From the IMG/VR virus record IMGVR_UViG_3300005613_000041, positions 11,239 to 75,238 of that record: DNA of 64,000 bases. One strand, 5' to 3'. Shown here piece by piece: positions 20,771-57,522 of this stretch. Made by a program: the position numbers and the translations under genes. The DNA is from a virus. Its lineage: Duplodnaviria > Heunggongvirae > Uroviricota > Caudoviricetes. The notes under the pieces were generated by a model. The model did not search any database. It was not told the DNA's origin and saw only the letters and a program-made list of their open reading frames with translations. How positions within the stretch are numbered: the stretch's first letter is position 1; the number at the start of each line of letters is the position of its first letter.

Positions 20771-22034
20771 TATATTAGGGTTAACAATAGCAAATACTTC
20801 ATATGGCTTACCATTTAAAAGACCAACTATAATACCATAGTATATGGATTGGACTTTTACGATTGAATAATGAGCTTCTAATTTTTTAGGTCTTTTAGGA
20901 GCATCATTTTTTGGTATAACTTCAGTAACTTTTTCTTTATTTAGATTTGAGATGATGTTATTACGACTACCATCTCTATAGCTTTTTATCTACTACTTTC
21001 ATAATAGTTTGGACTATACCATAATCCTTGTCAGGATTCTTCCATTATAGTCTCTGAACGTCTCGTAATCCATTTATAATCATAACATTCTATTGGACAG
21101 TCTCCAATATAATCAAGAAGTAAAATTAAACCTTTATTTCCTAAATGGTACGCGCCACCTTTTTTATAAGAATAAAACTTTACTTGATTACCAGTAATTT
21201 TTTGAAGTTGTTTTAACACATACTCATTATAATGTTTACAAGATATTTGTCCTCTGTTATTCCAACTTTTACTTTGTTTGGAACTAGAACCATCCCCAAT
21301 ATACCACCAAAGTAGCATAGTAGGTGTTAAATTAATATCAGGTAAAATTTTTCTAAATTGTTTTTGTGTTATCATTATTTCTTTTGGATAAAATAAATTA
21401 TAAATATCCATAAATTCTGGTCTTGTTTCTGTTTGAAAAGTATAAGCATTTACTCCTTTATATATTTCAGAACATTTAATTCCTTCGTTTAAAAAGAAAG
21501 GTATAATATATTCTAAAACTTCTCTATGTTTATCAGTATAAATAAAATGGGGGTATTTGCCTTTTATAGCTAATCTCATCCCACCATCTCCTAAAATCAT
21601 ACCTAATATCATTTCTTTTAAACTATTAGAAATATTAATAGGTTCTTTATAAAAAAAATCTCTTACAGATTCTTTTACATTTCTAATCTTTGTACCAGAT
21701 TTTGCTATTTTATAACGAATCTGTCCAATGTTTTTATTATACTTTTGTGAAAGTTTATTCATACTTTCACCTTGCTTATATTCTTCTATGATTATATCCC
21801 ATAGATTAGGATTTCGCTGCTGATTATCCATTTATACAATTTAAAAAGGTTTAACAATAATATTATACAAAGGTATAACAAAATTATTAAAATTCCAAAT
21901 AAAATTGTATTTATTTTCATTATTTTAAAACATTCACACTTATCATCTCTGATTATGTTGTAGTTAATGAAACTTTAGGAAGTTCCAGCAATTTAGAAAG
22001 TTTTCATCTATATATTACTATATAGAGCCGCCTA
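20771..22034 (-). other. Group I intron 2 of the RNR gene (~1.26 kb) with an embedded LAGLIDADG homing endonuclease gene
   Basis: RNR exon 2 reads ...LKGITVNI then TAG at 22032; the RNR-like frame resumes ~1.25 kb downstream; the same GUUAAC / AAYAUA sequences occur at both candidate junctions; the intron 5' region is homologous to the ATPase-gene intron; boundaries are +/-12 nt. Confidence 0.6.
21031..21831 (-). CDS. LAGLIDADG homing endonuclease (double-motif) with N-terminal HTH-like region, intron-encoded
   Basis: 'LGMILGDGGM' and 'LLWWYIGDGSS' LAGLIDADG motifs; free-standing ORF with its own start inside the RNR intron. Confidence 0.85.
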   Translation of the reverse strand: MDNQQRNPNLWDIIIEEYKQGESMNKLSQKYNKNIGQIRYKIAKSGTKIRNVKESVRDFFYKEPINISNSLKEMILGMILGDGGMRLAIKGKYPHFIYTDKHREVLEYIIPFFLNEGIKCSEIYKGVNAYTFQTETRPEFMDIYNLFYPKEIMITQKQFRKILPDINLTPTMLLWWYIGDGSSSKQSKSWNNRGQISCKHYNEYVLKQLQKITGNQVKFYSYKKGGAYHLGNKGLILLLDYIGDCPIECYDYKWITRRSETIMEES

Positions 22035-23354
22035 TATGTTAACGGTAATACCTTTAAGTTTATAATTCCATGCATCTAGATAGATTCGTGATACAACTTC
22101 TTTTGGTATATCTGATGGAAGATTTATGGTCGAACTTATGGAATGTGATGTAAATTCTTGTAGAATACTTTGCATTTTAATTCTAAACTCCCAATCAATT
22201 TCTTCAGCTTCAACCCAAGGAAGCTCTTTTTTATGAAGTTTGGTAATACTTTCATCATCTGTATCAATACCTTTAACTTTACAATAGTCATAAACTCTTG
22301 GGTGTATAGTACTATATTTTTTAAATTTTTGACCATCTTTGTCTATATAATCATAATCTTCTGTTTTGTCTTCTACTTTAACAGATCTAGTACTAAACAT
22401 AGAATAAATAGGTTCCATTCCACTACTTACACCATGTTCAAGAGACTTACTACCTGTAGGAGCAATTGTACTCCACGATACATGTCTTCTACCGAACTTG
22501 CTCATTCTTTTCCATTGTTCAGGATACTCTGATTCTATAAATTCATAAAATGAATTACCTCCTTGTTCAAGATTAATATCAAATCCTTTAAATGGTCCAA
22601 ATCTGATTGACAAATCAATAGTTGAATCAAGTTCAGCTCTCATTTTAATTTTCATGATAGCTTTAGCATTCATTAATCCATTCTCAGAATCATATCTGAT
22701 GTTAAGAGCTGCTAAAACATCAGCTAATCCCATAATACCTAATCCAATTCTTCTACTATTAACAACATTTCTTCTAATAGTATTCCACAGATTAAATTCT
22801 TCCAGTTCAAATTGTTGTGAAACAGTAATATGTCTAATAATCCTATCAATTGCTTCGATTTCTAGATCAACTAGAATATCCATTAAAATAATGGATTCAT
22901 AAACATATTGATAAAATTTATCACCATCAAATACTGCATTTTCCGTAAAAGGATTTTCCACAAAATTATAAAGATTCATATGACCGAGAATACAGCTAGC
23001 ATACGGTTGAAACCATATCTCACTACAAGGATTACATACTGAACCTTTATACTCTTTGTATACACTATCAGGTGCATAATTATTATGATTGTCACTAAAG
23101 ACAATTCCAGGTTCAGCTACACTATGAGCAGCATCAATGATTTTATCCCATAATACTCTAGCTTTTACTTTTGATGAATATTCATCATTATCACCAAAAT
23201 ACAATTCATAATCTTCATCATTGATTACTGCCTCCATAAAATCATCAGTAATATCAATTGATAAATTAGCACCTGTTAGTTTAGTTAAATCCTTTTTGAC
23301 TTCAATAAATTTCTCAATATCAGGATGATGAATATTAAGAAGTACCATCAACGC
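22035..23354 (-). CDS. Ribonucleotide reductase (class II-like) exon 2
   Basis: Begins 'ALMVLLNIHHPDIEKFI' (RNR HPDI motif); active-site 'VCNPCSEIW'; 'STIAPTGS' and 'TINLP' RNR motifs; ends 'KLKGITV..'; the annotated Met is a TTG artefact; a 5' splice junction is required. Confidence 0.8.
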
Positions 23355-23692
23355 CTAAGGTTTAAATACCTTATTAGACTATATCTTCAGATAAGACTAA
23401 GTTCTTATCCACCTATGCGCTTCCAAACAATGAATTTCACATTGAATGTACTTTACTCGGTTACTCACCATTAACTGTAATGGTTGTCCTTTCAATAGTC
23501 GTTACACTTTCATTAGTATATTCAAAATATAAACCTTGCCTTTTACTTTTTGTAATAGAATTTGGTCATTAATATACTAATGCTTAGCACGGTATTATTA
23601 TATATTCGGCAAATATATAGTTTCCACCGTTAGCCCTTATAAAGGACACCCTATATTTATAGGTTCACATAGTTTTGAGGCACATTTTGTTT
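23355..23692 (-). other. Group I intron 1 of the RNR gene (338 nt, no ORF)
   Basis: Exon 1 ends ...NGRRG (GGU, 5' splice site after U) and exon 2 starts ALMVLL, restoring the conserved RNR 'RRGALM..HPDI' sequence exactly; intron ends in G (omega-G); core has GACUA...UAGUC P7-like pairing. Confidence 0.8.
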
Positions 23693-27421: not shown

Positions 27422-27649
27422 TTAATTTAAATTTTTCATATTCCAATCAATATTTTTAATAGTCTTTGTTTTTTCAGATTTTAATTTTTCAATTAATTCT
27501 AACATACTCTTAATTCGAGATATAGCTAGTTCACCAATACTACGACAATCTCTAGTCTCTTTTGCTAAATCATCAAGATTCCTAAATTCCATACCCTCAA
27601 GTACATCTCGATAATTTTTAACAGCTCTTTTTAAATCTTTTTTTCTCAT
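27422..27649 (-). CDS. Hypothetical small protein (75 aa)
   Basis: ORF only. Confidence 0.3.
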   Translation of the reverse strand: MRKKDLKRAVKNYRDVLEGMEFRNLDDLAKETRDCRSIGELAISRIKSMLELIEKLKSEKTKTIKNIDWNMKNLN

Positions 27650-35241: not shown

Positions 35242-35850
35242 TTATAATTTAATGTTTGTTTTTTTAAATATACCACTGCCCAGAAATCCTGCTTTTCTTC
35301 CACTATAAGCTTCAGCAGCTGGATGTGGAACAGTATGTATAATATTTGTTTGTTTGTTTATAAACTTTGAATAAAACTGAGCATTTCTACCCATTAATAA
35401 CCATTCACAAGAGTTATGATTACTAATAGTACGAACTACTTCTGTTGAAAAGGATCTCCAGTATATCATATGAGAACCTGGTTTTTTCTTTTCAACTGTA
35501 AGAGAAACATTTATTGGGAATACACCTTTGTTTAACCATTCTTCATTATCAATTGGATGTCCTAATTCTTCTTCTATTATTTTTAAAGAATAGGGTTTCT
35601 TTTCCAATGTTGGATCAACTAAGAAAGCATAGCCAATAGCTTCTCCATTAGGATATGGGTCCATACCTAATATGACAAGTTTTATTTCATTTAATGGAAT
35701 TTGAAATACTCGAAAAATATTGTCAATTGGTGGATAGAATTGACATTTCGGAAGTATTGTTGTGTTAAGGATTTTTAATCCTTCATCATTCTCGAACACA
35801 TCTTGTAGATGAGGTATCCAAGAATCGTGAAAATATTTGTTCATTAACAA
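35242..35850 (-). CDS. ung: Uracil-DNA glycosylase (family 1-like)
   Basis: 'VILGMDPYPNGEAIGYAF' (GQDPYH water-activating loop analogue) and C-terminal 'HPAAEAYSG' (HPSPLS-like). Confidence 0.7.
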   Translation of the reverse strand: MLMNKYFHDSWIPHLQDVFENDEGLKILNTTILPKCQFYPPIDNIFRVFQIPLNEIKLVILGMDPYPNGEAIGYAFLVDPTLEKKPYSLKIIEEELGHPIDNEEWLNKGVFPINVSLTVEKKKPGSHMIYWRSFSTEVVRTISNHNSCEWLLMGRNAQFYSKFINKQTNIIHTVPHPAAEAYSGRKAGFLGSGIFKKTNIKL

Positions 35851-36796
35851 ATTTATTTACATAATCCCTACCTTTAGATTTATACAAGTCTGAAATATCT
35901 TTATCTGATGTTTCTGAGAAAATTTCTACAATCTCAATATCTAATGATAGTTTATTTAAATAATTTTTAAACTTTGCTGATTTTTCAATACCAACACAAT
36001 CATTATCAAAAAATATTATAATTGTTTGAAAATTTCTCAAAATAGAAATTAAAAGATTTTGATCTGAAAATTGATTTTCACTCTGTAACCATATTGAATT
36101 GACATCAAAATTTCTGAGAACTCTACAATCTTTGTAAGACTTAGTTATAACTAAGTAGTTTTTTGAATAGTCAATATTATTGACATTTCCAATATCATTT
36201 TTTGTAGCGTTCGTCATAAACTTATATTTTTTCTTTTCAGAAAAAGGTCTATAAGTTTTTTTAATGTTTTTTTCACGATTTATCAAAATGTTATAAGTAA
36301 GATCTATTGGTGAAATTACTTTATCACCAATAATAATAGAACTGACTGGTGAAACAAGATCTTCATTTAATTGTTCTATAGTTATACCATATTTTCCCCA
36401 AAATTCTTTATCTTTTATTTTCCAATTTCTTAAAATAACATTTAAAGATTTTTTCTCTTTTGTCTTCTTACTTTTTTCTATCTGACGAGGAGGAATTTTT
36501 GTTTCTACACCATCCATCTTGTTATTTAAAAGAAAAATAGACTGACCTATACTTATTCCATATAGGTCAGAACAAAACGTTAGTACGTTTCTATTTTTTT
36601 CAACCCAATCTACAAAATATAATATGTTATTATACCATTTGAAATAACATGAAGGATTGTCATCTTTTCTAAAAAAGGAACAATAGTATTTATCCAACTG
36701 GGGATATTCCCCAATCATTGTTTTATATAGTTCCTCTTGAGAATAATTAATTAATAATTCTTCAAATGTTATGATGGGTTTTTTTAAATTCATCAC
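35786..36796 (-). CDS. TOPRIM-domain DnaG-like DNA primase (putative)
   Basis: 'TIIIFFDNDCVGIEKSAKF' TOPRIM DxD motif; N-terminal Cys pair; sits between replication genes. Confidence 0.4.
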   Translation of the reverse strand: MMNLKKPIITFEELLINYSQEELYKTMIGEYPQLDKYYCSFFRKDDNPSCYFKWYNNILYFVDWVEKNRNVLTFCSDLYGISIGQSIFLLNNKMDGVETKIPPRQIEKSKKTKEKKSLNVILRNWKIKDKEFWGKYGITIEQLNEDLVSPVSSIIIGDKVISPIDLTYNILINREKNIKKTYRPFSEKKKYKFMTNATKNDIGNVNNIDYSKNYLVITKSYKDCRVLRNFDVNSIWLQSENQFSDQNLLISILRNFQTIIIFFDNDCVGIEKSAKFKNYLNKLSLDIEIVEIFSETSDKDISDLYKSKGRDYVNKFVNEQIFSRFLDTSSTRCVRE

Positions 36797-37827: not shown

Positions 37828-38190
37828 TTATTCTCCTTCATAATATTTTTTCATACAATTCAATACTTCCTGCATGTCATTAGGAATTTTAAGTGCAGGA
37901 AACATTCCTTCTGGTGATTTTGCTGGTACTTCTAAACCAGCATCATTTATCATTCTATTAGTGATAAAAGAATATTCAGCTTTTTTCTCCTCGTTAAAAC
38001 TGACAGACGTAAATAAGCAAATACTTACAACAGCAAGTGGATTATACTTATCATCAAGCATTTTTCCAATAAGTTTTGTTTTGAGGAGAGGTTGTTTATC
38101 TGCAACATCTTCATGAAATGTCATAATAACATTCTTGTCAGTTGGCACTTGATTTTGAGCAAACTTTATAATTGACTGCATATTCACAGC
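37828..38190 (-). CDS. AAA_24/Sak4-like P-loop ATPase, exon 2 (C-terminal half)
   Basis: 'KNVIMTFHEDV...KPLLKTKLIGKMLDDKYNPLAVVSICLF' matches the sensor/'nvi.iaH' segment of phage AAA_24 ATPases; the upstream frame is closed by a stop 4 codons before the Met. Confidence 0.5.
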   Translation of the reverse strand, partial: AVNMQSIIKFAQNQVPTDKNVIMTFHEDVADKQPLLKTKLIGKMLDDKYNPLAVVSICLFTSVSFNEEKKAEYSFITNRMINDAGLEVPAKSPEGMFPALKIPNDMQEVLNCMKKYYEGE

Positions 38191-38486
38191 CATTTTAGTA
38201 AATTTATCATCATTTTAATCTTTTATTTTTCAATAAAAGTCTGACTATATCTTAATTAATAATATTAATTCCTACCTTTTCCAAGAAAAATTCTTGTACT
38301 CTACTCACTTCCAGTTAAACTGTGTTTTCGATAGTCGATGAACTTTACTCATTTTAAAGAGTCTTAGCTGCTGATTGTCCAATATTAATTATTTTTAAAC
38401 ATTCACGTTTATTTTTTCAAATTACGTTGTAGTTAATTAATCTCTAAGGAGTTCCCAGCAATTAAATAGGTTTATAGTGAACATGA
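38191..38486 (-). other. Putative group I intron splitting the AAA_24 ATPase gene (~300 nt, no ORF)
   Basis: ~75 nt at its 5' end are ~80% identical to the 5' end of RNR intron 2 (AAUUGCUGGRAACUYCC...AUUAACUACAACRUAAU...GUGAAUGUUU); contains CGACUAUCGAAA...AUAGUC P7-like elements; boundaries approximate. Confidence 0.5.
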
Positions 38487-38789
38487 AAAATATCCACTAG
38501 TATTAGCTTTCTCAAAATATTCATTCAACATACTAAACCCAATGTCATCAATAATAATATTTTTGATATTTGGGTCAGTCGATTTAGCTGACATAGCTTT
38601 AATAATCTCTTCTGACGTTACGAGTCTAGCAATATTTTTGTTAGCAGCATTATATTGCTTTCTACTACCTTTCCATGGTAGTTCTTTTCCAGTAACATTA
38701 ATAATTACTGTCTCATTTGACGGTAGATTTTTAAATGATGTTGATTTACCAGTACCGGTATCACCAACAATCATAATTATATTTGCCAT
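38487..38789 (-). CDS. AAA_24/Sak4-like P-loop ATPase, exon 1 (Walker A/B half)
   Basis: Walker A 'GDTGTGKST'; Walker B 'IIIDDIG'; only 105 aa before a stop, i.e. half of a ~230-aa ATPase. Confidence 0.55.
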
Positions 38790-38837: not shown

Positions 38838-39956
38838 TTAATATTTTAATGGTTCAAAAAGTCCAAGATTACCTTTAAATTCTAAATGGGTATGAACCGG
38901 GCATTCAGTATCTCTACTCTCCACAAGATGCCATGACCTTATATTTGGATATTTTCTGACATCAGGACAGTTAAAATGCTTTCTTATCTTATACTTTTCG
39001 TCACGAGGATTGAATAAAGTAATAATGAAGTTACTATCCTCAGACAAATTGCCTGTATCTTTGATCGTTTCTGCTGTAGGATAAAGTTCATCTGACATAA
39101 ACTGAATCCTGTCTACATCACCTAAAGATCTATTAGTATGAATCACATTAACAAAGGTAAAACCACATAAATTTCTTAAATCTACCTGATAGCCTGACCA
39201 TCTATCAACGTTCTCTTTAAGACTATATCCTTTTTCTCTTTTAAGATTTCGCATGTGATCTGTTATCACAATCGTAAAGTGATTAAGGTCATTTGGCTTA
39301 TATCCAGAAATTCTACTCTTATTGACAGATTTACCATTTTCCTGAGTTGGATAAGTTTCGTGAATAAACTTACCATGTTTATCAGCATAATCCATCAAAT
39401 AATGATACATCCCGGTCGGGTTCATTTTATCTTCGATGAAGTCGATCTTACCTTTTTGAATACAATTACCATTTGAATCATATTCACCAAACATCGGTCT
39501 TATCCATTTCTCATAGACCGCAAACACTCCATCCTTCATCTTAGGACTAGCTGTTATGATATTTCTATCTTCATCTTGAAGTTTTCCTTCAAAAAACATA
39601 GGATTAATCGGATAAGATCTACCTTTCCATTCATAGTGAGTAACTCCAAATTCTTTAAACATAAAATATGGAATTAATCTGAATTGTTTTTTCATACGAT
39701 CAATTTCATACGAAAAATAGATCCAATCTACAGTTATTCCTTTATCAACAACTTCTTTTCTTAATGAATCAATAAATGGATTTATAAGAAATAGATTGTC
39801 CACTAAAGCAGTTTTTCCAGATTTAGGTGCTCCTGCGATGGTGTATGTACTCTTTCTTTGTACACCACCCATAAATTGATTGATATTAACCAATCCAGTA
39901 TCAAGACCAAAATTATTTCCTTCTTGACCCTGAAGAAAAGCTTCTTTAAAATTCAT
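38838..39956 (-). CDS. DnaB-like (SF4) replicative DNA helicase
   Basis: Walker A 'AGAPKSGKTALV'; 'FTIVITDHMRNL' (H2/Walker B-like); 'ITLFNPRDE' arginine-finger-like segment. Confidence 0.6.
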   Translation of the reverse strand: MNFKEAFLQGQEGNNFGLDTGLVNINQFMGGVQRKSTYTIAGAPKSGKTALVDNLFLINPFIDSLRKEVVDKGITVDWIYFSYEIDRMKKQFRLIPYFMFKEFGVTHYEWKGRSYPINPMFFEGKLQDEDRNIITASPKMKDGVFAVYEKWIRPMFGEYDSNGNCIQKGKIDFIEDKMNPTGMYHYLMDYADKHGKFIHETYPTQENGKSVNKSRISGYKPNDLNHFTIVITDHMRNLKREKGYSLKENVDRWSGYQVDLRNLCGFTFVNVIHTNRSLGDVDRIQFMSDELYPTAETIKDTGNLSEDSNFIITLFNPRDEKYKIRKHFNCPDVRKYPNIRSWHLVESRDTECPVHTHLEFKGNLGLFEPLKY

Positions 39957-40516
39957 ATCATTTTATGTATGTCATTTTTATCATTTTCTTTTTCTTTAAC
40001 AATCTTTACAAACTCTTCTAATCTAGATGTGGCAGCAGAACCTACACCTTTCTTAATAAAATAATCAGCTCTTTGAAGATATTGAGGATTATTAACTGTT
40101 TGTAAATATAATTTTACTGCTTCCAATACATCTTCTTTTCTTACATCTGGATTTTCACTAAAGAACTTTTTCATTCTATTAGCACAAGAGGTAACTGTTC
40201 CACCACCATCTTTTCTTATACTAACAAATAATGACATGTATTCATTCTCTACCCAATCCCAACTGTCAAAACTATTAGATGAATCTTTTTCACTTTCAAA
40301 TAATCTAACATTAAAAATTACTTCATCTAATTTCCAGTCTATATCTATTATGTGATTGGATAGTAAGATTTTTATGTTCTTTTGCATAGTTGGAGATTCA
40401 TTATAGAATTTTTCTATATCTAAATCATGATATAATGCTAAAAGAATCATTATACAACTTTCTACATCGGCATTTACTTCCTTTAATTTTTTAATTAACG
40501 AATTATTAATTTTCAT
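39953..40516 (-). CDS. Hypothetical protein (187 aa)
   Basis: ORF only. Confidence 0.35.
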   Translation of the reverse strand: MKINNSLIKKLKEVNADVESCIMILLALYHDLDIEKFYNESPTMQKNIKILLSNHIIDIDWKLDEVIFNVRLFESEKDSSNSFDSWDWVENEYMSLFVSIRKDGGGTVTSCANRMKKFFSENPDVRKEDVLEAVKLYLQTVNNPQYLQRADYFIKKGVGSAATSRLEEFVKIVKEKENDKNDIHKMI

Positions 40517-41633
40517 GAAATATAAAATCTTTCATATTTTTAGTAGAAGATTCAAACCACTCTTCTTCTACTGTGTTTTTAGCTATTAATACATAAATAA
40601 TAGCTTGGTGATCTTCTCGATAACGAATAGATCTACCAATTCTTTGTGTTAAAGTTAATTCACTTCTGCTTGTTTGAAAAATAATTTCAGCATCAACATC
40701 AGGAATATTAACACCTTCATTAAGTCTGTCAACAACAGAAAGTGAATTTATTTCTTTCTCAATAAACATATTAAGAAATTTATCATTAGAACTTTCTGAA
40801 TGATAAGTAAATGGTGAGATTCTGTTAGCAACTTTAATACTTGGTGAGAATATAACTGTTCTTTTTTCTTCAGCTTCTAACTTTTTAAGAATCCGTGAAG
40901 CTTCTGAAACTTTACTATTTAAGGAACCAAGAAATTGATATCTCTTAATTCTCAACATCTTTAGACGAGAATAATCACCTTGAGTTTTAAATGGTGTTGC
41001 TACCAAATTGTTAATTGCACCATTCAGATATTCACTATTAGCATATTCTGTTGTAAGAAATGGTCTATTTTTATTACCAGCTCTAACTTGTTTAACATGT
41101 TGATCAAGTGTTACATATACTGGAATTATTTTAAAATTACTAACTAAATTCTGATCAACACTTTGTTTTAAAGTAATTTCAATTACTTTATTAAAACTAC
41201 TCAAGATCTCCTGTTTTTTTAAATCATGAGGAAAAGTAGCTGTTAAGCTTAATGATTCTTTGATATTATTATTTTGTAAGAAAACTGAATTGTTAACAGT
41301 AAGATTTTGAACCTCATCAAAAATAACAAGATCAAAATTTTCATCTGTAATATTACAGATACTTTTATAACAGATAGTATTAATACTATCATAATTTTCT
41401 ATTTTTCCCCATAGTCCAAATTGCTCTTTCCAAGTTTTATCTCGTAATTCTTCTGTAGGAACAACTATGAGAATATTAGCTTTAGGATTTTTCTCTATTA
41501 CAGACTCTACTCTTAATACTCCGATCCTGCTTTTGCCGACTCCAGTAGCGGCAATAACAAGATTGCGACCCTCACCTAAATCTGCTAATTGTTCAGCAAT
41601 AGATTCTTGTATTTTTGTTTTTGTATTTGACAT
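40506..41633 (-). CDS. SF2 DNA/RNA helicase (DEAD/DEAH-like)
   Basis: Motif I 'ATGVGKS'; motif II 'FDEVQ'; motif III 'LTAT'; motif VI 'QRIGRSIR'. Confidence 0.7.
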   Translation of the reverse strand: MSNTKTKIQESIAEQLADLGEGRNLVIAATGVGKSRIGVLRVESVIEKNPKANILIVVPTEELRDKTWKEQFGLWGKIENYDSINTICYKSICNITDENFDLVIFDEVQNLTVNNSVFLQNNNIKESLSLTATFPHDLKKQEILSSFNKVIEITLKQSVDQNLVSNFKIIPVYVTLDQHVKQVRAGNKNRPFLTTEYANSEYLNGAINNLVATPFKTQGDYSRLKMLRIKRYQFLGSLNSKVSEASRILKKLEAEEKRTVIFSPSIKVANRISPFTYHSESSNDKFLNMFIEKEINSLSVVDRLNEGVNIPDVDAEIIFQTSRSELTLTQRIGRSIRYREDHQAIIYVLIAKNTVEEEWFESSTKNMKDFIFHEN

Positions 41634-41636: not shown

Positions 41637-42398
41637 TTATAAGGTATTTATTATAAGTTTTTTTGCTTCATCTATATAATAATCATAATCAATCATCTGT
41701 TTTAAACTTTCCAGATCTATATCAGTTAAGTTATTACAAACGATACAAGTTTTATCAACTTCGAGATATTCTCTTCTCATCTCATTTTTTCCAGATAGAG
41801 GAGGCATGATTTTAGCTAGATAAATACCATTATTTGAAATACAATATCGAGTAACTTTACCTAATTTTTCTATAACTTTTCCATCTTCATCAAGAATCAC
41901 AAACTCATGACTATTATTTTTCTTGACGGCTGATTTAAAATAATCAAAAATGTCATCATGATTTCTTATAAAACTTTCTATATCAACCCCATCTTTATAA
42001 AAAGCTTCAACAGCTTTTGGAACAATCATCATTGAATGATTTTTATGAGGTTCTCTATCATATTCATAAGCACCCTTTTTCTTCAATGAACCATTATCGA
42101 ATATCCCAATATAATTATTGCAATCACGGATATGTAACTCTTCATATTCTGCATATTCCAGTTCCAGATTAGTAAGCTCTTCCCATTTTTTACACACATC
42201 ATCAAATTCATCTTCTTTATTACGAGGAATTCTTACTTCACCACCATCTGTATTCATCATTAATAATTGACATCCTTCGATTTTCAACAACTGTTCAACC
42301 AACATAGTCAACATAAGTTGACCATTCAATGTTATTTGAATAACTGCTTGAGGATCTCTTAATTCACTAAAATTATCATTCATTTTCAGTTTTATTAC
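41637..42398 (-). CDS. Family B DNA polymerase exon 2 (motif C and KxY region)
   Basis: Frame open upstream to ~42416; '...AVIQITLNGQLML...LLMMNTDGGE' (motif C YxDTDS-like) and 'KKKGAYEY' (KxY); the 5' splice boundary is approximate. Confidence 0.65.
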   Translation of the reverse strand, partial: VIKLKMNDNFSELRDPQAVIQITLNGQLMLTMLVEQLLKIEGCQLLMMNTDGGEVRIPRNKEDEFDDVCKKWEELTNLELEYAEYEELHIRDCNNYIGIFDNGSLKKKGAYEYDREPHKNHSMMIVPKAVEAFYKDGVDIESFIRNHDDIFDYFKSAVKKNNSHEFVILDEDGKVIEKLGKVTRYCISNNGIYLAKIMPPLSGKNEMRREYLEVDKTCIVCNNLTDIDLESLKQMIDYDYYIDEAKKLIINTL

Positions 42399-43439
42399 CG
42401 TAATATCATTTAAATATTACTTCTATATGTTTCCATGTAGCTTAGACTATATCATTATCCTATATATTTATATAGGATAGTAGGCGCTCGTGTCTTTATT
42501 ATATTCTACAATTGTAGTTTCAAAAGTTAGTCGTTGCTCTTTCTATAACCATTTAAATTATAGCTTAGATCAGTATTATCATATCAATTGACTTAGACTT
42601 CTACTGAATTCACCTACTTCCTTTATTGTGTTACCACAATAAGGGGCTGTGTATTATATTTAAACTTTCTTAAAAAATAAACCTTTATATGGCTTATTAA
42701 AATTTGAAGACTTATTAATATTTACAGATTGTAACAAATAAGGAGAATAACTTTGTCTTCCATTTGGATTTCTTAAAATCATATGTTGTTTTAAGATAAA
42801 TTCGTCTTGTAAAGATAATTCTTCGATATCTTTAGCACTTCTCCATTCTCCTAAATAATTCATGTTTATATCGAAAACTTGAATATTAGGATTATTATTT
42901 CTCTGAGCATTTATTTGATTTGTTCTATCAGGTTTTTTTCTTTTAGGAACTTTTAAGTGATCTGTAGAAAAATACTTTATACCTTTATTCCAAGGAGTTC
43001 TATTTCTCAAAGTTTCTTTTACATGATCTAATTCACCATTGTCGTATTTTCTCTTCATTGTTAAACGTCTTTTGTTAATAGCTTCTTGAGAAAACTGACA
43101 ACCACCTGTAGCTAACAAATTTATATTATATAAGTTTTCAAAATCTTCTTTGTCAATATATGTTTGTTCAAGTTCTAGAATATTATCATTACAATGTTCT
43201 AATACATTAAACTCAAAATTTTCTTCTCCATATTTATTCCAAGCATATTGAAGATGAGAATTCTTATGTTTATTATTTTTTAATACATTTTTATGATGAT
43301 AAATTCTTTTTTCTAAATCAATACTAGAACCAATATATTTTTTACCATTTATTTTATTTTTTATTTCATAAACACCTTTCATAGTATACCTCCTTTTAAG
43401 AGAATATACTATAAATTAAGTTTAAATACAATTTAAACA
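42399..43439 (-). other. Group I intron in the DNA polymerase gene (~1.04 kb) carrying a GIY-YIG homing endonuclease gene
   Basis: Exon 1 stops 5 codons after motif B 'KLSGNGSYG'; motif C resumes ~1 kb downstream; the proposed junction YG|V follows a U and the intron ends in G; a strong SD (AAAAGGAGG) precedes the embedded HEG. Confidence 0.6.
42660..43382 (-). CDS. GIY-YIG homing endonuclease (I-TevI-like), intron-encoded
   Basis: 'GVYEIKNKINGKKYIGSSIDLEKRIYHH' canonical GIY-YIG motif; free-standing, with its own SD. Confidence 0.85.
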   Translation of the reverse strand: MKGVYEIKNKINGKKYIGSSIDLEKRIYHHKNVLKNNKHKNSHLQYAWNKYGEENFEFNVLEHCNDNILELEQTYIDKEDFENLYNINLLATGGCQFSQEAINKRRLTMKRKYDNGELDHVKETLRNRTPWNKGIKYFSTDHLKVPKRKKPDRTNQINAQRNNNPNIQVFDINMNYLGEWRSAKDIEELSLQDEFILKQHMILRNPNGRQSYSPYLLQSVNINKSSNFNKPYKGLFFKKV

Positions 43440-44648
43440 ACCATAACTACCATTGCCAGATAGTTTTAGAGCTTTATTAAGAACACTACCTTTTGGATAT
43501 TTCGATCTTTCAATTTTAATATCATTCATCGTGGTACAAAATGTAGGTCCAAGATGAAGAGGATAAATATTATTTGTAATCATCATCGACGGATAGTAAC
43601 TTTTAACATCAAAACTTTTAACAATATAATTTTCATTTGTAAAAAAGTTACCGTAAGTAGCTTGGTGAACACCACCAGTACCGTAAGTAATTTGATTACC
43701 TTTAAAATTAATTGTTAATGATTTAATTTCGATTTCAGGATATTCTAGTAAATCTTGATATTTCTCAATTGTTACTTTACGAGGTTTTCGTTTTAGATTT
43801 GATTTTGAAATATCAATAATCGGTAATATTTCTGTTAAGTTTTTATTTGGAATATCAGTAAAAGCACCTTTAGTCTCTTTTATTTCTCTTGTTTTTAACC
43901 AATTTAAAAACTGATTAAGATCAGATGACTCAAAACTGACATATGGAAATATTACATCTTTAAACTTAATGATTTCTCTATTAGTTTGACCAAGCTCATC
44001 CTTCTCTAAAGCAGATTTAAGCTTAGATACCAAAATAGATTCTCCAATTTTAACATCATTGAAATTAGTCATATCTATATTAAATCTTTCACTTAATTCT
44101 TCTCTTAGAGAAATATGTCCTAAACTGTGTTTTCTATAAAATTCATAAGTAGCGAACAAGTCATTCTGATTATAGAAAATGACTTCATCCATCTTATCTA
44201 ACGGTACTATTTCATCATGTTCTATAGGCAAATCTTGGACATTCTTCATTCTCATAAAAAACTCAAGTTGTTTAAGACTTGTCATTTTTGCTTTATTATT
44301 ATAATGATGAATTAGTCTAAGATCTATTTGGGGAATAAGTTGAGGAATACGAGAAGGATATTTACTTCTAACCAAAATGTCACTGTAAGTTTTACATAAA
44401 CCTACAATAGTAGACATTTTGTATTTTTTTGATTGAACTAATGATAAGAAATGATATAATAGAGGATAATCAAACGATATGTTATTAAACCCTATCATTT
44501 GTTTAACATGACGAAGATATTCTACTAACTCATCATATTCAAGCTTTCTTTCTGAAAATTCAAAGTATTTTTCTTCTTGAGATTCTGTTTCAAGAAACCC
44601 AAATAATAAATAGTTTTTAAAAATCTCAATATCATATATTACTTTCAT
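43440..44648 (-). CDS. Family B DNA polymerase exon 1 (3'-5' exonuclease domain, motifs A and B)
   Basis: Exo I 'IYDIEIF'; Exo II '[11 protein letters not shown]'; Exo III '[13 protein letters not shown]'; pol motif A '[11 protein letters not shown]' (DxxSLYPS); motif B 'KLSGNGSYG'. Confidence 0.75.
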
Positions 44649-52341: not shown

Positions 52342-52420
52342 AAGGGCTGACAGGGTTCGAACCTGCATACTCCAATTACTCGATTAATGACTGCTTAGAA
52401 GGCAGTTGAGATACAGCCCC
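52342..52420 (-). tRNA. Atypical tRNA-like gene (79 nt): good acceptor and T-arm, UCU anticodon-like hairpin, no canonical D-arm, 23-nt insert before the T-arm
   Basis: GGGGCUG/CAGCCCU acceptor; GCAGGUUCGAACCCUGU T-arm; ACUGC-CUUCUAA-GCAGU hairpin; possible pseudo-tRNA or tRNA-like RNA. Confidence 0.3.
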
Positions 52421-52444
52421 ATTTAACTATAAATATTTACAGTT

Positions 52445-52945
52445 ATGAATTGTTTAAACTGTGGTCAAGAGACCAGCAATCCTAAATTTTGTTCAAGATC
52501 ATGTTCTGCTACATATACTAATAAGTTAATTCCTAAAAGAAAGACTAAGAAAACTTGTATTATATGTGGCGAACCTGTTATGTCTTATAGACATAATAGA
52601 TGTCAATTACATTGGGATGAATACAAAAATAATAAATATAAAAGTAAGACGATAGGTGAATATAGAAATATGTCTTCAGTTAAAGATAAGCATCTTTCTT
52701 GGATTCATACACACATAAGACAATTTGCTAGATCATGGTTAAAAGAACTAACCAAACTTCCTTGTGCAATTTGTGGATACGATAAACATGTTGAATTAGC
52801 TCATATTAAACCATTATCAAGTTTTTCTGATTCAGAATTACTTTCAGTAGTTAACTCTAAAGACAATGTTATACAGTTATGTAGAAATTGTCATTGGGAA
52901 TTTGATAATGGTTTAATAGAATTGCCTAAGATACTCGAATCTTGA
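52445..52945 (+). CDS. HNH homing-type endonuclease with N-terminal zinc ribbon, opposite strand inside the tRNA array
   Basis: 'CAICGYDKHVELAHIKP...NVIQLCRNCHWEFDNG' HNH motif; N-terminal 'CLNCG...CSRSC'. Confidence 0.8.
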   Translation: MNCLNCGQETSNPKFCSRSCSATYTNKLIPKRKTKKTCIICGEPVMSYRHNRCQLHWDEYKNNKYKSKTIGEYRNMSSVKDKHLSWIHTHIRQFARSWLKELTKLPCAICGYDKHVELAHIKPLSSFSDSELLSVVNSKDNVIQLCRNCHWEFDNGLIELPKILES

Positions 52946-53018
52946 ACCCACTGATCAAAAAGGCTAGGGCTTTATCCATTAAGCTAAGAGGGCATATATT
53001 GCAGTATTTTAAATAGAG

Positions 53019-53092
53019 TACGGATGGTAGGACTTGAACCCACTGTCTCAGAGATATAAGCTCCGTGCATATACCAGTTATGCTTCATCCGC
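53019..53092 (-). tRNA. tRNA-Ile(UAU): tRNA-Ile(UAU)
   Basis: Hand-folded cloverleaf: GCGGAUG acceptor, anticodon loop CUUAUAU, T-arm GUGGGUUCAAGUCCUAC. Confidence 0.7.
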
Positions 53093-53287
53093 ATCAAATT
53101 AATTTATCATGAAGTATTCTTCTAATAGATCTTGAAAATTATCAAAGAATTCAAGTCTCCTTATTCTGGGATTTACAAGTGTGACTTTTTATCCAAATGA
53201 TTATATAAAAACTAACAATACTACTTAAAATTATGTTTAACATTTCAGAGGTTTCATACATAATATCATGATTTGATTATTAAAATG

Positions 53288-53360
53288 TGGAACAGACAGG
53301 AATCGAACCTGTGACCACTAGATTTTCAGTCTAGCACTCTACCAACTGAGTTACTGTTCC
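53288..53360 (-). tRNA. tRNA-Phe(GAA): tRNA-Phe(GAA)
   Basis: GGAACAG acceptor, D-arm ACUCAGUUGGUAGAGU, anticodon loop CUGAAAA, T-arm ACAGGUUCGAUUCCUGU. Confidence 0.8.
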
Positions 53361-53365
53361 TTTTG

Positions 53366-53450
53366 CGGAGATAGTAGGATTCGAACCTACACAAGATATT
53401 AACTCGATAGTTTAGCAAACTATTGTGGCTACCAATTTCACCATATCTCC
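53366..53450 (-). tRNA. tRNA-Ser(GCU): tRNA-Ser(GCU), type II
   Basis: GGAGAUA acceptor, anticodon loop UUGCUAA, long variable arm, T-arm GUAGGUUCGAAUCCUAC. Confidence 0.75.
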
Positions 53451-53462
53451 AACATTAGATAG

Positions 53463-53536
53463 TGTACCGAGTGAGATTCGAACTCACGATCCTCAGATTA
53501 AAAGTCTGATGCTTTAGCCTACTAAGCTACCGATAC
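53463..53536 (-). tRNA. tRNA-Lys(UUU): tRNA-Lys(UUU)
   Basis: D-arm GCUUAGUAGGCUAAAGC, anticodon loop CUUUUAA, T-arm GUGAGUUCGAAUCUCAC. Confidence 0.8.
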
Positions 53537-53563
53537 ATAAAAAAAGAAAAATAAATAATTTTT

Positions 53564-53785
53564 TTATACTTCAATTCCTCCTCTATAATACCATTTCATA
53601 AAATTTGGATCATTTAATTTTTCAATTGGATAATCTGTACAAAATTTACCATTAAAATATCTATGTGCTTTATCTCTACAATCATTCCAATTTTCACCTT
53701 CGATAATTGCGAGACAATTATGATCAAATGTTTTATCATTTATATAATGAACATGATCTTGACCAAAACTTATTAGTATTTTCAT
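53564..53785 (-). CDS. Hypothetical small protein (73 aa)
   Basis: ORF between tRNA genes. Confidence 0.3.
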   Translation of the reverse strand: MKILISFGQDHVHYINDKTFDHNCLAIIEGENWNDCRDKAHRYFNGKFCTDYPIEKLNDPNFMKWYYRGGIEV

Positions 53786-53811
53786 ATTTTAATTATTTTA
53801 TTTTTTTTGAG

Positions 53812-53884
53812 CACGTGCTGTAAGAATCGAACTTACCCAACAAGTTTTGGAGACTCGTTCGCCAGCCTTGGAACATGAGCACGT
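53812..53884 (-). tRNA. tRNA-Trp(CCA): tRNA-Trp(CCA) (slightly irregular D-stem)
   Basis: ACGUGCU/AGCACGU acceptor, anticodon loop CUCCAAA, T-arm GUAAGUUCGAUUCUUAC. Confidence 0.6.
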
Positions 53885-53944
53885 ATTTACTGGGCTTCCT
53901 ATAACTCACCAATTCAATATACAAAAAGTTTGATAACAAAAAAA

Positions 53945-54403
53945 TTATTTTTCTACTTTACCAAAAATAATTTCAAGGAGCTTCTTCTTTATCACAACAT
54001 TTGGGATTCTAAGTGTTCTTGGGTCATCAAATCCCATAATGGTTCCCACCTCGCAAACGGCTCCTGAACGACTTACCCCAGCTGCACAATGAACAATTAC
54101 GTTCCAGTTGTTTGAGTAAGCCTTCTGAAGAACCGATACTATATCTACAGCGTCCTTATGATCGATACAATCCTCGGAATATGTATCATCGATCAGGTAT
54201 CGATGGACCTCATGGAATTCGTATGGTGATACTGGAAATTCTACAAAACTCCCACTAAACCCGAAATCATCCCTTTCTTTGGAAAGTATCTGAATTGCTA
54301 TGGCATTCTCACCAGGATCTCGATGTGATCCCTCGACAAAAGCCATATATGATACGTTTTGAATGAATGCCATTAAAAGTTCTTCTCTCGACCTTTCACC
54401 CAC
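53945..54403 (-). CDS. Dual-specificity (Cys-based) protein phosphatase
   Basis: 'VIVHCAAGVSRSGA' HCx5R P-loop signature; higher local GC. Confidence 0.65.
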   Translation of the reverse strand: MGERSREELLMAFIQNVSYMAFVEGSHRDPGENAIAIQILSKERDDFGFSGSFVEFPVSPYEFHEVHRYLIDDTYSEDCIDHKDAVDIVSVLQKAYSNNWNVIVHCAAGVSRSGAVCEVGTIMGFDDPRTLRIPNVVIKKKLLEIIFGKVEK

Positions 54404-54583
54404 CCAGTCGGTATAGGATCAGTCTTTTTTATCCTTCTGTTCTTTTTCTCTTCGACGTTGGTTATCCACATTGTTCCTTTATTGACGTGTTCCAACTCCT
54501 TCGACAAATATCTTGGATCGTTGACAGAAACCTGCATAGTTTTGCCATTCTCGTCCTTTACAGTAACAGTTCCTTTAGTTTAG

Positions 54584-54655
54584 TACTCTCCAGAGGAATC
54601 GAACCCCTATGAACCGGGTAGAAGCCGGTGACATTATCCGTTATGCTAGGAGAGC
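54584..54655 (-). tRNA. tRNA-Arg(UCU): tRNA-Arg(UCU)
   Basis: GCUCUCC acceptor, anticodon arm ACCGG-CUUCUAC-CCGGU, T-arm AGGGGUUCGAUUCCUCU. Confidence 0.75.
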
Positions 54656-54676
54656 ATTTGATACATCCGCATTGAT

Positions 54677-54910
54677 TTATCTTGGGATTATAAATGAATC
54701 TTTAATAAAGGTTGTTAGAATGTGTCCACAATCAATAACCCCTCTTTCCCACCCACTATAAAATGGATCATTTGGTTCATCAGGATCTCTTGTCTCTGCA
54801 TCACATTCGTGTAACCTCTTCTTAGCAAGCTTTATCGTCTCATCAAGAAAATCCTCATGAGACAGATTTTTCTCTTTGGCAAGCGCCAGTAACATAGCCC
54901 TATCCGTCAT
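54677..54910 (-). CDS. Hypothetical protein (77 aa)
   Basis: ORF only. Confidence 0.3.
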
Positions 54911-54967
54911 ACCTCCTCCAGCATTTTTCTGAGTTCGTCCAGTATAATCTCGGTTGTCTTTGTTTTG

Positions 54968-55052
54968 CGGGAGGAGTAGGATTCGAACCCACGGAACCTT
55001 TCGGCCCTCTGGTTTTCAAAACCAGCGCATTAGTCCACTCTGCCATCCTCCC
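54968..55052 (-). tRNA. tRNA-Ser(UGA): tRNA-Ser(UGA), type II
   Basis: GGGAGGA acceptor, anticodon loop UUUGAAA, long variable arm AGGGCCGAAAGGUUCC, T-arm GUGGGUUCGAAUCCUAC. Confidence 0.75.
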
Positions 55053-55083
55053 AAGTTTAAAATACAATACTCACATTAGAATG

Positions 55084-55158
55084 TACTACCACTTGGAATT
55101 GAACCAAGAACCTCTTGTGTATCAGACAAGTGCTCTAACCAGATTGAGCTATGGTAGT
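55084..55158 (-). tRNA. tRNA-Ile(GAU): tRNA-Ile(GAU)
   Basis: ACUACCA/UGGUAGU acceptor, D-arm GCUCAAUCUGGUUAGAGC, anticodon loop CUGAUAC. Confidence 0.8.
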
Positions 55159-55410
55159 ATTTTTAAAACTATTTTTTGTTTTGTGTTTTATTAAAGCACA
55201 AATGATACCTTTGTCAAAATCACTAGGTTCATCAAAACCCAATGATTCAATTTCAAGTCTTTTAATACAATCATCACCAAACAAAGATATTTCTTTCATA
55301 GCATAATCATAACCTTGTTCTTTTAATGTTTTATTTACATTAAACCAAGATTTTATTAAGTTTTTAAATTTTTCATGAATATAACAATCTGATTACTAAA
55401 ATTTTCAAAA

Positions 55411-55773
55411 TTAAATTAAAAGTAATGCTTCGTGTAGACCTTTTTCAAGTGCTTCTTCATAAGTACCAATAATACGATTTTTACTTGTAAATTCGACAAA
55501 TGGATCAATTGTTTTATAAACAGCATAATTTTGTATATTAGGATAATGAGTTATAACACTAATACTAATATTATACTCCTCTCTTAACCATTTTTGTAAT
55601 AACGATTGAGTTGGTGCTGAATACCAATATTTAGGTTTTGTTGGATGAAGACTTGGAAAATCAATATCATTTAATAACTCTCCTAAAATATTGTAATATG
55701 AAGCAAACTCAGTATTAAATCCCTTTTCTTTAGCTAATATAGCTATTTCAAATGAGATAATTTGTTCTTGCAT
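55411..55773 (-). CDS. Hypothetical protein (120 aa)
   Basis: ORF only. Confidence 0.35.
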   Translation of the reverse strand: MQEQIISFEIAILAKEKGFNTEFASYYNILGELLNDIDFPSLHPTKPKYWYSAPTQSLLQKWLREEYNISISVITHYPNIQNYAVYKTIDPFVEFTSKNRIIGTYEEALEKGLHEALLLI

Positions 55774-55815
55774 AATAATGATTTATTTAATGTTATTTTA
55801 AATTAGATAAATGTG

Positions 55816-55887
55816 TTCAGGAAGTAGGGTTCGAACCTACGAATGTCAGGTCCAAAACCTGATGCCTTACCGCTTGGCTATTCCTGA
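55816..55887 (-). tRNA. tRNA-Gln(UUG): tRNA-Gln(UUG)
   Basis: UCAGGAA/UUCCUGA acceptor, anticodon loop UUUUGGA, T-arm GUAGGUUCGAACCCUAC. Confidence 0.75.
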
Positions 55888-55900
55888 ATTATTGTGATAG

Positions 55901-55974
55901 ATCCACCTGAGAGACTCGAACTCTCAACTTACTGATTACAAGTCAGTTACTCTAGCCAATTGAGTTAAGGTGGA
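55901..55974 (-). tRNA. tRNA-Thr(UGU): tRNA-Thr(UGU)
   Basis: D-arm ACUCAAUUGGCUAGAGU, anticodon loop CUUGUAA, T-arm GAGAGUUCGAGUCUCUC. Confidence 0.75.
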
Positions 55975-56030
55975 ATAAACAAAACTTCTATTATTGTCAA
56001 AATTATATGTTCCTCGAACAAAACCTAAAG

Positions 56031-56117
56031 CGGAAGTGTAGAGACTCGAACTCTAAAAACGCTGTTAACGTCCTACTTGTTTTCAAGACAAGCTCCTCAT
56101 CCAGCCGGATCACTTCC
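56031..56117 (-). tRNA. Type II tRNA with anticodon UGA (second Ser(UGA)-like gene; D-arm irregular)
   Basis: GGAAGUG/CACUUCC acceptor, anticodon arm CUUGU-CUUGAAA-ACAAG, variable stem ACGUU-AAC-AGCGU, T-arm UAGAGUUCGAGUCUCUA. Confidence 0.55.
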
Positions 56118-56124
56118 TTAAAAC

Positions 56125-56236
56125 AAATCACATTTTTAGCGCTCTACCAACTGAGCTAATTATGAATTAACATAATAATGGATTTGAACCATTGACCTCT
56201 CCAATGAAATTGGAAAATATTTGCTGTATGTGATTT
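56125..56236 (-). ncRNA. Y RNA-like (YrlA-like) structured RNA element E1: closing stem AAAUCACAU/AUGUGAUUU, conserved UACAGCAAAUAUU, internal tRNA-like module
   Basis: Covarying terminal stem shared with five other copies; interior has CCAAU-UUC-AUUGG hairpin, AAUGGUUCAAAUCCAUU T-arm, AUUAUG-UUAAUU-CAUAAU closed acceptor-like hairpin and GCUCAGUUGGUAGAGC D-arm. Confidence 0.5.
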
Positions 56237-56252
56237 TATAAAAATTAAATAG

Positions 56253-56337
56253 TACCTCTAGAGAGACTCGAACTCTCAATTCCTTTTGGGAATGTAGTTC
56301 CTAAGACTACCGCGTTTGCCAATTTCGCCATAGAGGT
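56253..56337 (-). tRNA. tRNA-Leu(UAG): tRNA-Leu(UAG), type II
   Basis: ACCUCUA/UAGAGGU acceptor, D-arm GCGAAAUUGGCAAACGC, anticodon loop CUUAGGA, long variable arm, T-arm GAGAGUUCGAGUCUCUC. Confidence 0.75.
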
Positions 56338-56344
56338 ATATTAC

Positions 56345-56406
56345 AGATCATTCTTTGTATTTCATCATAAAAAAATAAAATTTTAATATTTGCTGTAAAT
56401 GATCTT
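56345..56406 (-). ncRNA. Short member E2 of the conserved stem-loop family (stem AGAUCAUU/AAUGAUCU; loop starts UACAGCAAAUAUU)
   Basis: Same conserved motif and covarying stem as E1/E3-E6; no internal tRNA-like module. Confidence 0.45.
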
Positions 56407-56419
56407 ATTAAATAATAGG

Positions 56420-56510
56420 AGGGCAGGATCGGATTTGAACCAATAATAGATGTCTGCTGTAAGTAATTTTATAGAACAAATTACTTTCTTTACCATTTGA
56501 ATACCTGCCC
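56420..56510 (-). tRNA. Atypical tRNA-like gene (91 nt): canonical acceptor, D-arm and T-arm; 8-bp hairpin (UCU-containing loop) plus ~20-nt insert in place of a normal anticodon/variable region
   Basis: GGGCAGG/CCUGCCC acceptor; D-arm UUCAAAUGGUAAAGAA; T-arm AUUGGUUCAAAUCCGAU; internal AGUAAUUU-GUUCUAUA-AAAUUACU; contains UUACAGCAGAC, resembling the family motif. Confidence 0.35.
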
Positions 56511-56524
56511 ATATAATAAATTAG

Positions 56525-57113: not shown

Positions 57114-57117
57114 TTGA

Positions 57118-57420: not shown

Positions 57421-57437
57421 ATTTAGATTGAAAATAG

Positions 57438-57511: not shown

Positions 57512-57522
57512 ATTTATATTAG

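Follow-up and report, generated by a model that had tools for sequence, protein, structure and literature searches.

Results

An ATPase gene in two pieces

We analysed by computation a stretch of 64,000 nucleotides (nt) of phage DNA (positions 11,239 to 75,238 of IMG/VR record IMGVR_UViG_3300005613_000041), hereafter the window, to whose numbering all coordinates refer. The subject of this report is a locus on its minus strand where the gene of a replication ATPase is found in two pieces. By the list of open reading frames (ORFs) and the sequence, both Walker motifs, A (GDTGTGKS) and B (IIIDD), lie in an ORF of 105 amino acids (aa) at 38789..38472 (-), and an ORF of 121 aa at 38193..37828 (-) is the C-terminal half of an ATPase gene. 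The ~280 nt that separate them hold no ORF of at least 30 aa, in agreement with the initial annotation of this DNA, which had noticed a spacer of ~300 nt without an ORF and had proposed that an intron splits a single ATPase gene. The window belongs to JGI metagenome contig 3300005470 Ga0074646_100070 (71.6 kb), in whose annotation the halves are two separate proteins without domain matches. Our results indicate that they are very probably the exons of one gene, interrupted by a group I intron with the following limits.

Exon 1: 38492..38789, minus strand; 298 nt, 99 codons and base 1 of Tyr100, with Walker A and B inside.
Group I intron: 38211..38491, minus strand; 281 nt, no ORF, no P2, IA2-like with P7.1 and P7.2, terminal omega-G at 38211.
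Exon 2: 37828..38210, minus strand; 383 nt, bases 2 and 3 of Tyr100, 125 codons and the stop codon.

Splicing at 38492 (after GGAU) and 38211 (after G) joins the exons in frame into a product of 226 aa. The predicted ligated junction reads ...ACTAGTGGAT joined to ATGATAAATTT... (in a shorter form, ACTAGTGGAT joined to ATGATAAATTTACT), and the protein predicted to be restored there is ...NTSG-Y-DKFTKM..., the intron lying between bases 1 and 2 of the Tyr100 codon in the motif G-[YF]-x-K-F. The tail of the 105-aa ORF, five codons and the stop (FSCSL and stop), is intron-derived, and the 121-aa ORF has its ATG 17 nt downstream of the start of exon 2. The limits of the half-genes had been placed roughly right before, with the true exon ends at 38492 and 38210.

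With the fused 226-aa protein as query, a database search gave 504 homologues (E<=1e-3). Of these, the 120 listed have ~220-250 aa, cover 96-100% of the fused query with up to 62% identity and are all single unsplit chains; the closest of these 120, P0001, has 61% identity, and on its Logan contigs the ATPase is followed by the same succession of gene sizes, including a Toprim primase. All 80 IMG/VR relatives fetched (80/80) are likewise unsplit, and none of them has an intron at the same site. In an alignment of the query with 20 homologues the junction is ungapped and G99, K102 and F103 are invariant in the 21 sequences, and positions 1-212 of the 219 of the phrog_2872 profile match fused residues 1-224 end to end (E 1.2e-48). 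The fused product is in this way colinear with full-length members of its family, as the proposal of a split gene had demanded. The codons of K102 and F103 follow an in-frame TAA and precede the first ATG of the 121-aa ORF; only spliced RNA would allow their translation.

Structure and detection of the intron

The helices of a group I intron can be drawn in the 281 nt and the exon bases next to them, all on the minus strand.

P1, 5' strand AGUGGAU (exon): 38492..38498, minus strand; 7/7 pairs with the internal guide sequence, its last U forming a U·G pair at the 5' splice site.
Internal guide sequence GUUCACU (3' strand of P1): 38476..38482, minus strand; intron nt 10-16.
P10 strand UCAU: 38483..38486, minus strand; pairs with the start of exon 2, AUGA (38210..38207).
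Conserved 5' module: 38382..38473, minus strand; 5' strand of P3, J3/4, 5' strand of P4, P5, P5a and P5b with a GAAA tetraloop.
P6/P6a hairpin: 38342..38368, minus strand; from the helix check and covariation.
P7, 5' strand GACUAU: 38331..38336, minus strand; pairs with AUAGUC (38248..38243), the guanosine-binding helix.
P7.1 and P7.2 hairpins: 38282..38322, minus strand; flanking the conserved GGAAGUGAGUAGAGUAC.
P3, 3' strand AGGUAGG: 38271..38277, minus strand; pairs with CCUAUUU (38470..38464).
P8 hairpin: 38254..38270, minus strand; its loop is where other introns at this site carry an HNH gene or a 31-nt insert (see below).
P9 hairpin with a GAAA tetraloop: 38220..38239, minus strand; 5/8 pairs with double changes.

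P1, P3-P9, P7.1/P7.2 (CAGU/ACUG and CAAGAA/UUCUUG) and P10 can all be drawn with Watson-Crick or GU pairs, the sole mismatch being an A-A in the outermost pair of P5b. The core P3-P9 can form with its P3/P7 pseudoknot and P7 helix, P1 places a U·G at the 5' splice site, and omega-G and P10 go with an in-frame ligation that reproduces the invariant G-Y-x-K-F spacing. The position of P7.1 and P7.2 between P7 and the 3' strand of P3 is that of subgroup IA2, for which the missing P2 is atypical. No homing endonuclease is encoded in the intron, where no ORF of at least 30 aa is present in 38211..38491. The 17-mer GGAAGUGAGUAGAGUAC was found in 88 IMG/VR stretches.

The splice sites defined by P1, P10 and the terminal G are the sole ones that give the exact family spacing G-Y-x-K-F. 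Two other placements were rejected: the P1 placement of Rfam (splicing after GCU), from which no in-frame 3' splice site results, and a 3' splice site at the next G, which gives G-Y-K-F and drops a residue from the ungapped invariant motif.

A local Rfam search over 1.2 kb matched RF00028 at 38514..38221 along the full length of the model (1-253), with 49.7 bits and E 2.3e-11; a covariance-model check of this kind had been suggested at the outset. The curated gathering score of RF00028 is 50 bits, and the default scan misses the intron because its score falls 0.3 bits below. Both scans of the whole window lack it: at the gathering threshold only tRNAs were reported, and at the E-value threshold the intron was filtered out. 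By blastn the intron core matches that of a Flavobacterium FPSV intron (73% over 229 nt, E 7e-24), with further matches in Vibrio ICP1 and many Staphylococcus phages. When the 3' domains of five related introns were aligned, 94% of the cells were paired, versus at most 45% with slid partners, and 14 pairs were changed on both sides; P7.2 covaries, and two of the six P7 pairs do (2/6, with double changes in ICP1). An unconstrained minimum free energy (MFE) fold recovers P3, P4, P5, P5a (partly), P5b, P6a, P7.1, P7.2, P8 and P9. Weak blastn matches of the intron at 27560..27471 lie in ordinary ORFs and were put down to chance similarity of AT-rich sequence. In one Vibrio record, ICP1_2017_F_Mathbaria (L002 ~2500-2770), the intron has a tandem duplication of ~77 nt from P5b to P6 (two copies of GGATGAAATAAGCC…CAGCAGCAGAATCCCGAAAAGGGAAG); other ICP1 records give a single shorter match.

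Introns at the same site in other phages

Same-site introns were located via other short 'half' proteins that match the exon-2 ORF. In three other phage lineages the orthologous ATPase gene is interrupted at the identical position (GGA T/NN, the slash marking the insertion).

L095 (Logan SRR21146044): intron of 1008 nt; a homing-endonuclease-like ORF in P5 replaces P5a/b (phrog_559/9084, E ~1e-15).
L098 (SRR27686863): intron of 876 nt; an HNH gene in the P8 loop (phrog_3377, E 5e-52).
L099 (ENA ERZ17988026): intron of 343 nt; no ORF.

The fused product of each restores G-[YF]-x-K-F. The P1 strands of L095 and L098 are ACUGGAU (exon) and GUUCAGU (guide), which differ from P1 of the window by a compensatory change from G-C to C-G. 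As read from the sequences, the start of exon 2 in L098, AUUC, can pair with GAAU, one base 5' of the internal guide sequence, as P10, and an alternative P3 pairing, UUCC/GGAA, is possible in L099.

The comparison of the window with L095 is the most telling. The 5' ends of the two introns share 41 of 44 bases, and the 3' 164 nt are identical at 163/164, setting aside a 31-nt insert in the P8 loop of L095; the sole difference is a loop base. The exons are 62-63% identical and the proteins 52.6%, and only the 30-nt exon bins that adjoin the splice sites rise to 80-83%. Identity of the intron is thus far above that of the flanking gene, and relatives have empty alleles, which together are the signature of horizontal transfer. 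This contrast would be expected of a mobile intron that moves between phages with short co-conversion tracts, and conservation of the motif itself also contributes to the high identity next to the splice sites. The nearest relatives of the ATPase intron are the same-site introns that other phages have in their orthologous gene. A module of the P5a/b type is found in L098 as well, and for this reason P5a/b is probably ancestral at the site and the endonuclease cassette of L095 a later replacement.

The 5' module shared with a second intron of the window

Within the window, nt 19-110 of the ATPase intron (38473..38382) match 22003..21913 with 77% identity over 92 columns (blastn, E 6e-15), the next-best match of the intron having E 0.002; the earlier reading of ~80% over ~75 nt was about right. 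A nhmmer profile of the module finds exactly two copies in the window (E 1e-18 and 7e-20), of which the second belongs to an intron of the RNR gene.

P3-P5a/b module of RNR intron 2: 21913..22003, minus strand; found by blastn and nhmmer.
RNR intron 2: 20982..22041, minus strand; 1060 nt, LAGLIDADG ORF at 21831..21031, no P7.1/P7.2.

The ORF of RNR intron 2 (Pfam LAGLIDADG_2, E 3e-13) starts in P5'/P4' and ends in the loop of P8, and the intron runs from P7 to P3' to P8 with no P7.1/P7.2, like the intron of a Staphylococcus lysin gene. Its best phage matches are in Yersinia phiR1-37 (82%), Lactococcus AM1 (80.5%) and Acinetobacter ME3 (80%), followed by the Staphylococcus lysin gene (79%), the capsid gene of crAss cr118 (75%) and rpoB of Listeria LPJP1 (71% over 212 nt). 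In a common alignment of the shared module, the ATPase intron is 71% identical to RNR intron 2, 78% to the cr118 capsid-gene intron and 76% to Yersinia phiR1-37, and RNR intron 2 is 79% identical to Acinetobacter ME3 and 75% to Listeria LPJP1 rpoB. Even in this tiny panel the two introns of the window are not each other's nearest relatives.

The P3-J3/4-P4-P5-P5a/b module is widely conserved, including in phages of Yersinia, Acinetobacter, Staphylococcus, Listeria, Vibrio and Flavobacterium. Across the panel the P5b stem shows compensatory changes beneath GNRA loops, so the conservation of the module reflects structure. The ATPase intron and RNR intron 2 belong to the same family, and since introns of unrelated phages match the module just as well, spread within this genome is not supported.

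The ATPase and its phage

The product fits the family phrog_2872, 'Sak4-like single-stranded DNA (ssDNA) annealing protein', by its full-length profile match and its Walker A and B motifs, and phrog_124, which bears a Sak4-like label too, also matches (E 2e-9). The initial name AAA_24 suits the family, where 20 of the 21 aligned sequences match Pfam AAA_24 (PF13479) at E<=0.001, but the window protein itself is sub-threshold, with 23.1 bits against a cutoff of 27 (E 7e-5, residues 3-137 only). A PDB sequence search with the family profile gave only P-loop-level matches and no close solved structure.

Upstream of the ATPase lie a DnaB-like helicase (38838..39956) and a SNF2-type helicase (40506..41633), and downstream two small genes and then a DnaG-type primase (35786..36796). 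The same order of helicase, ATPase, two genes and primase occurs in crAssphage cr111_1 (Crassvirales, Steigviridae), whose ATPase gene is unsplit, annotated 'Sak4-like ssDNA annealing protein' and 42% identical in aa. The best annotated relatives of the window are Steigviridae (cr111_1), not Delta-group genomes. By synteny and description, the ATPase would be ATP_43b of crAss-like phages, listed as 'AAA domain ATPase' (Yutin et al. 2021; PMC7886860). A crAss-like phage would fit with the other contents of the window, which has an ORF of 4027 aa at 3110..15193 (+), RNR, a ThyX-like ORF (by eye, from the motif RHR...S..RY), a dUTPase-like ORF and a block of 23 tRNA genes at 52342..61471, all on the minus strand, within which 56522..56600 is also weakly tmRNA-like. 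The 4027-aa ORF and a second very large ORF, of 1467 aa at 15197..19600 (+) with no PHROG match, may be the giant proteins of crAss-like phages.

Two side observations concern the helicases. The helicase ORF 38838..39956 has 372 aa in the ORF list and 274 aa in the JGI annotation (L083:1524-2348), and its N-terminal 100 aa hold its sole DnaB-like PHROG match (residues 12-52). In cr111_1 (L104 1675-3508) a GIY-YIG 'intron endonuclease' gene stands directly upstream of a short 'replicative DNA helicase' CDS, and the helicase gene of this phage may also be intron-split.

Further introns in the ATPase family and in the window

A search with the exon-1 protein revealed no same-site intron, its single match being L093, at a different site. 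There, a LAGLIDADG-encoding intervening sequence of 1114 nt (L093:4307-5420) lies 5 nt downstream of the window site, after the Gly101 codon, and the fused ATPase product is colinear. An intron in L122 (7451-8425) follows the invariant Gly148 (…KTIG joined to KMLDEK…) and has a module of the same P3-P5a/b family, and in L153 (~6900) an ATPase homologue is interrupted near the Gly148 place of L122; the ATPases of L122 and L153 are more distant homologues (33-36% aa). The positions in L093 and L122 are two further intron sites in the ATPase gene family. By eye, the core of L093 looked like that of RNR intron 1 (ACGGUG…AUACCGUGCUAA).

Two other insertions interrupt genes of the window.

RNR intron 1: 23355..23692, minus strand; 338 nt, no ORF, P1 GAGGU/GCCUC, joining QNGRRG to ALMVLLNIHHPDI.
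Intervening sequence of the DNA polymerase gene (phrog_1252): 42399..43439, minus strand; ~1.04 kb, between the ORFs 44648..43422 and 42383..41637.

Removal of both RNR introns gives an in-frame RNR of 801 aa, whose barrel matches Pfam Ribonuc_red_lgC along 2-523 of 523. Within the DNA polymerase insert, a GIY-YIG endonuclease ORF lies at 43382..42660 (Pfam, E 9e-11). The 3' core of the insert, …GAUAUAGUC…, is group-I-like, the proposed protein junction is …NGSYG joined to VIKLKMNDNF…, and Rfam finds nothing here. RNR intron 1 was undetected by RF00028 even at E<=0.1, and E-value searches of the RNR region, the DNA polymerase region and L093 with this model found no intron. These regions nonetheless show split genes, endonuclease ORFs and recognisable P1, P7 and P10; RF00028 is insensitive to introns that bear ORFs or are divergent. 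Our ATPase intron had been counted as the third of the window; it is real, but the count was too low, since at least four introns interrupt genes here, the DNA polymerase gene being split too.

Discussion

Our analysis suggests with high confidence that the two half-size ORFs are exons of a single replication ATPase gene of a crAss-like phage, split by an ORF-less, site-specific group I intron of 281 nt that would move between phages. The fused product is colinear with its family, the spacer has the sequence and the structure of an intron, relatives occupy the same site in other phages, and intron and exons differ strongly in identity. Catalysis, splicing as such and the route of mobility we infer by analogy with characterised phage group I introns. 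We propose that P1 would form between the exon end AGUGGAU and the guide GUUCACU, with the U·G pair at the cleavage site, and that exogenous guanosine bound at P7 would attack after 38492. P10 (AUGA/UCAU) would then align exon 2, ligation would take place after the terminal G at 38211, and the ligated exons would allow production of the 226-aa ATPase. The lineage would be specific to the ATPase site and would pass from phage to phage; the copy in the window could not home alone, because it has no endonuclease gene, and may be a post-homing remnant or may have spread via recombination or with an endonuclease acting in trans.

Could the gene instead be truly split? In this case the RNA would stay unspliced and proteins of 105 and 121 aa, perhaps assembling with each other, would be made; both halves are indeed open ORFs with ATG starts, and the JGI annotation calls them as two genes. 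We regard this as highly improbable. Five residues read from the intron would close the 105-aa product, neither small product would contain the invariant K102 and F103, and 120/120 listed homologues and 80/80 IMG/VR loci are single-chain. The spacer itself has an intact group I structure with covariation, and its guide sequence changes together with the exon in L095 and L098. Slightly less remote, and still very unlikely, is a decayed intron that has lost both ribozyme activity and endonuclease, with the ATPase a pseudogene in this phage. An absent endonuclease ORF, the lack of P2, the extreme AT content, an unremarkable folding energy and the Rfam score just below threshold would all agree with decay. 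However, the helices are undisrupted except for the terminal A-A of P5b, both exon frames are intact with every invariant residue kept, and one loop base is all that separates the 3' 164 nt from those of the endonuclease-bearing copy in L095. Several observations do weigh against our main reading. The RF00028 score stays short of the gathering score by 0.3 bits and the match is lost by filters in both whole-window scans; the MFE z-score is -0.43, no better than shuffles; the covariation set consists of five sequences, two of them nearly identical; and the intron, without P2 and very AT-rich (27% GC), may need a protein cofactor for folding. The identity of the ATPase with crAss ATP_43b, for its part, has synteny and description behind it and no direct sequence comparison.

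Where did the ATPase intron come from? The similarity to RNR intron 2 had been taken initially as a sign of one lineage colonising two genes of the same genome, which could have occurred recently by ectopic transposition or by gene conversion of the 5' module. The module is present at only these two places in the window, with 77% identity over 92 nt, the intron family does occupy other sites and genes elsewhere (for instance after Gly148 of the homologous ATPase in L122), and the P5 domain is exchangeable, as it differs in L095 within an otherwise near-identical intron. We nevertheless consider such a spread unlikely, and the original suggestion is not borne out: each of the two introns has equal or nearer module relatives in unrelated phages (for the ATPase intron cr118, 78%, and Yersinia, 76%; for RNR intron 2 ME3, 79-80%, Yersinia, 82%, and Lactococcus, 80.5%), the architecture of the 3' half is not shared, P7.1/P7.2 being present in the ATPase intron only, and at 71-77% they fall well short of the 93-99% that the ATPase intron reaches with its same-site counterpart in L095. 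L098, a more distant same-site intron with a P5a/b-type module, suggests in addition that the module is ancestral at the site. As a tentative hypothesis, beyond the inter-phage intron in the ATPase gene for which we have argued, the window copy may be a snapshot of a site-specific intron system that environmental crAss-like phages are actively exchanging, with recent transfer between phages and with P5 as a swappable cassette (P5a/b here, an endonuclease gene in L095) in a modular recombination that possibly uses co-resident introns of the RNR-intron-2 type.

What does this locus add? The intron is of an ordinary type of phage mobile element, already known from ATP_43b. New is an ORF-less copy with exact predicted splice sites, a predicted structure and a set of same-site relatives. 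Public gene calls give two domain-less hypothetical proteins in place of one conserved replication ATPase. ORF-less introns of this kind escape both screens for endonucleases and the default Rfam threshold, so the intron load of crAss-like and other uncultured phages is probably undercounted. The phage group concerned is hard to culture. With copies that have no ORF, an HNH gene or another endonuclease-like ORF, and with empty alleles, the same-site set compactly illustrates, in nature, both the homing cycle and modular intron evolution. Our knowledge of how group I introns work is unchanged.

Sak4 is a single-strand annealing ATPase with a RecA-like core only, known from lactococcal and HK620 phages; in Sak4 proper, ATP-dependent annealing of single strands is stimulated by the cognate SSB. 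The window protein resembles it as a P-loop ATPase of ~230 aa with Walker A and B motifs and 'Sak4-like' PHROG matches, but the link is by profile label only and the Pfam AAA_24 match is sub-threshold. Our literature search gave no relevant paper on Sak4 together with group I introns.

Group I introns in crAss-like ATP_43b were reported previously, and those published for crAss-like core genes were found via their endonuclease domains (Yutin et al. 2021; PMC7886860). The window agrees with these cases in type of phage and in class of element; its gene too, judged by synteny and description, is theirs, an AAA-domain ATPase in a replication block with DnaB helicase, SNF2 helicase and primase. 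As there, one genome holds several introns (two in RNR, one in DNA polymerase, one in the ATPase). The intron-bearing ATP_43b genomes of that study are of the Delta group. Unlike the published introns, our copy is ORF-less and escapes the endonuclease-based approach as well as the default Rfam threshold.

Phage introns of the IA2 type with P7.1/P7.2 include those of T4 td, nrdB and nrdD and of the Staphylococcus phages Twort and K. With this group, including ICP1, FPSV and phiR1-37, the window intron shares the P3-P5a/b module, the J7.1/7.2 motif GGAAGUGAGUAGAGUAC and the P7 sequence AGAUAUAGUC, with 73-75% identity over ~190-230 nt to the introns of FPSV and ICP1. It differs in its host gene and in having neither P2 nor an endonuclease ORF; in FPSV a GIY-YIG gene follows P8.

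The DNA polymerase introns of the SPO1 family are another same-site intron series. Goddard and Burt reportedly described a cycle of intron invasion, endonuclease decay and loss. Our series would be consistent with such a cycle: conservation is much higher in the intron than in the exons, and a single site is found with an HNH intron (L098), with another endonuclease-like ORF (L095), with an intron that has no such gene (window and L099) and, in many relatives, as an empty allele.

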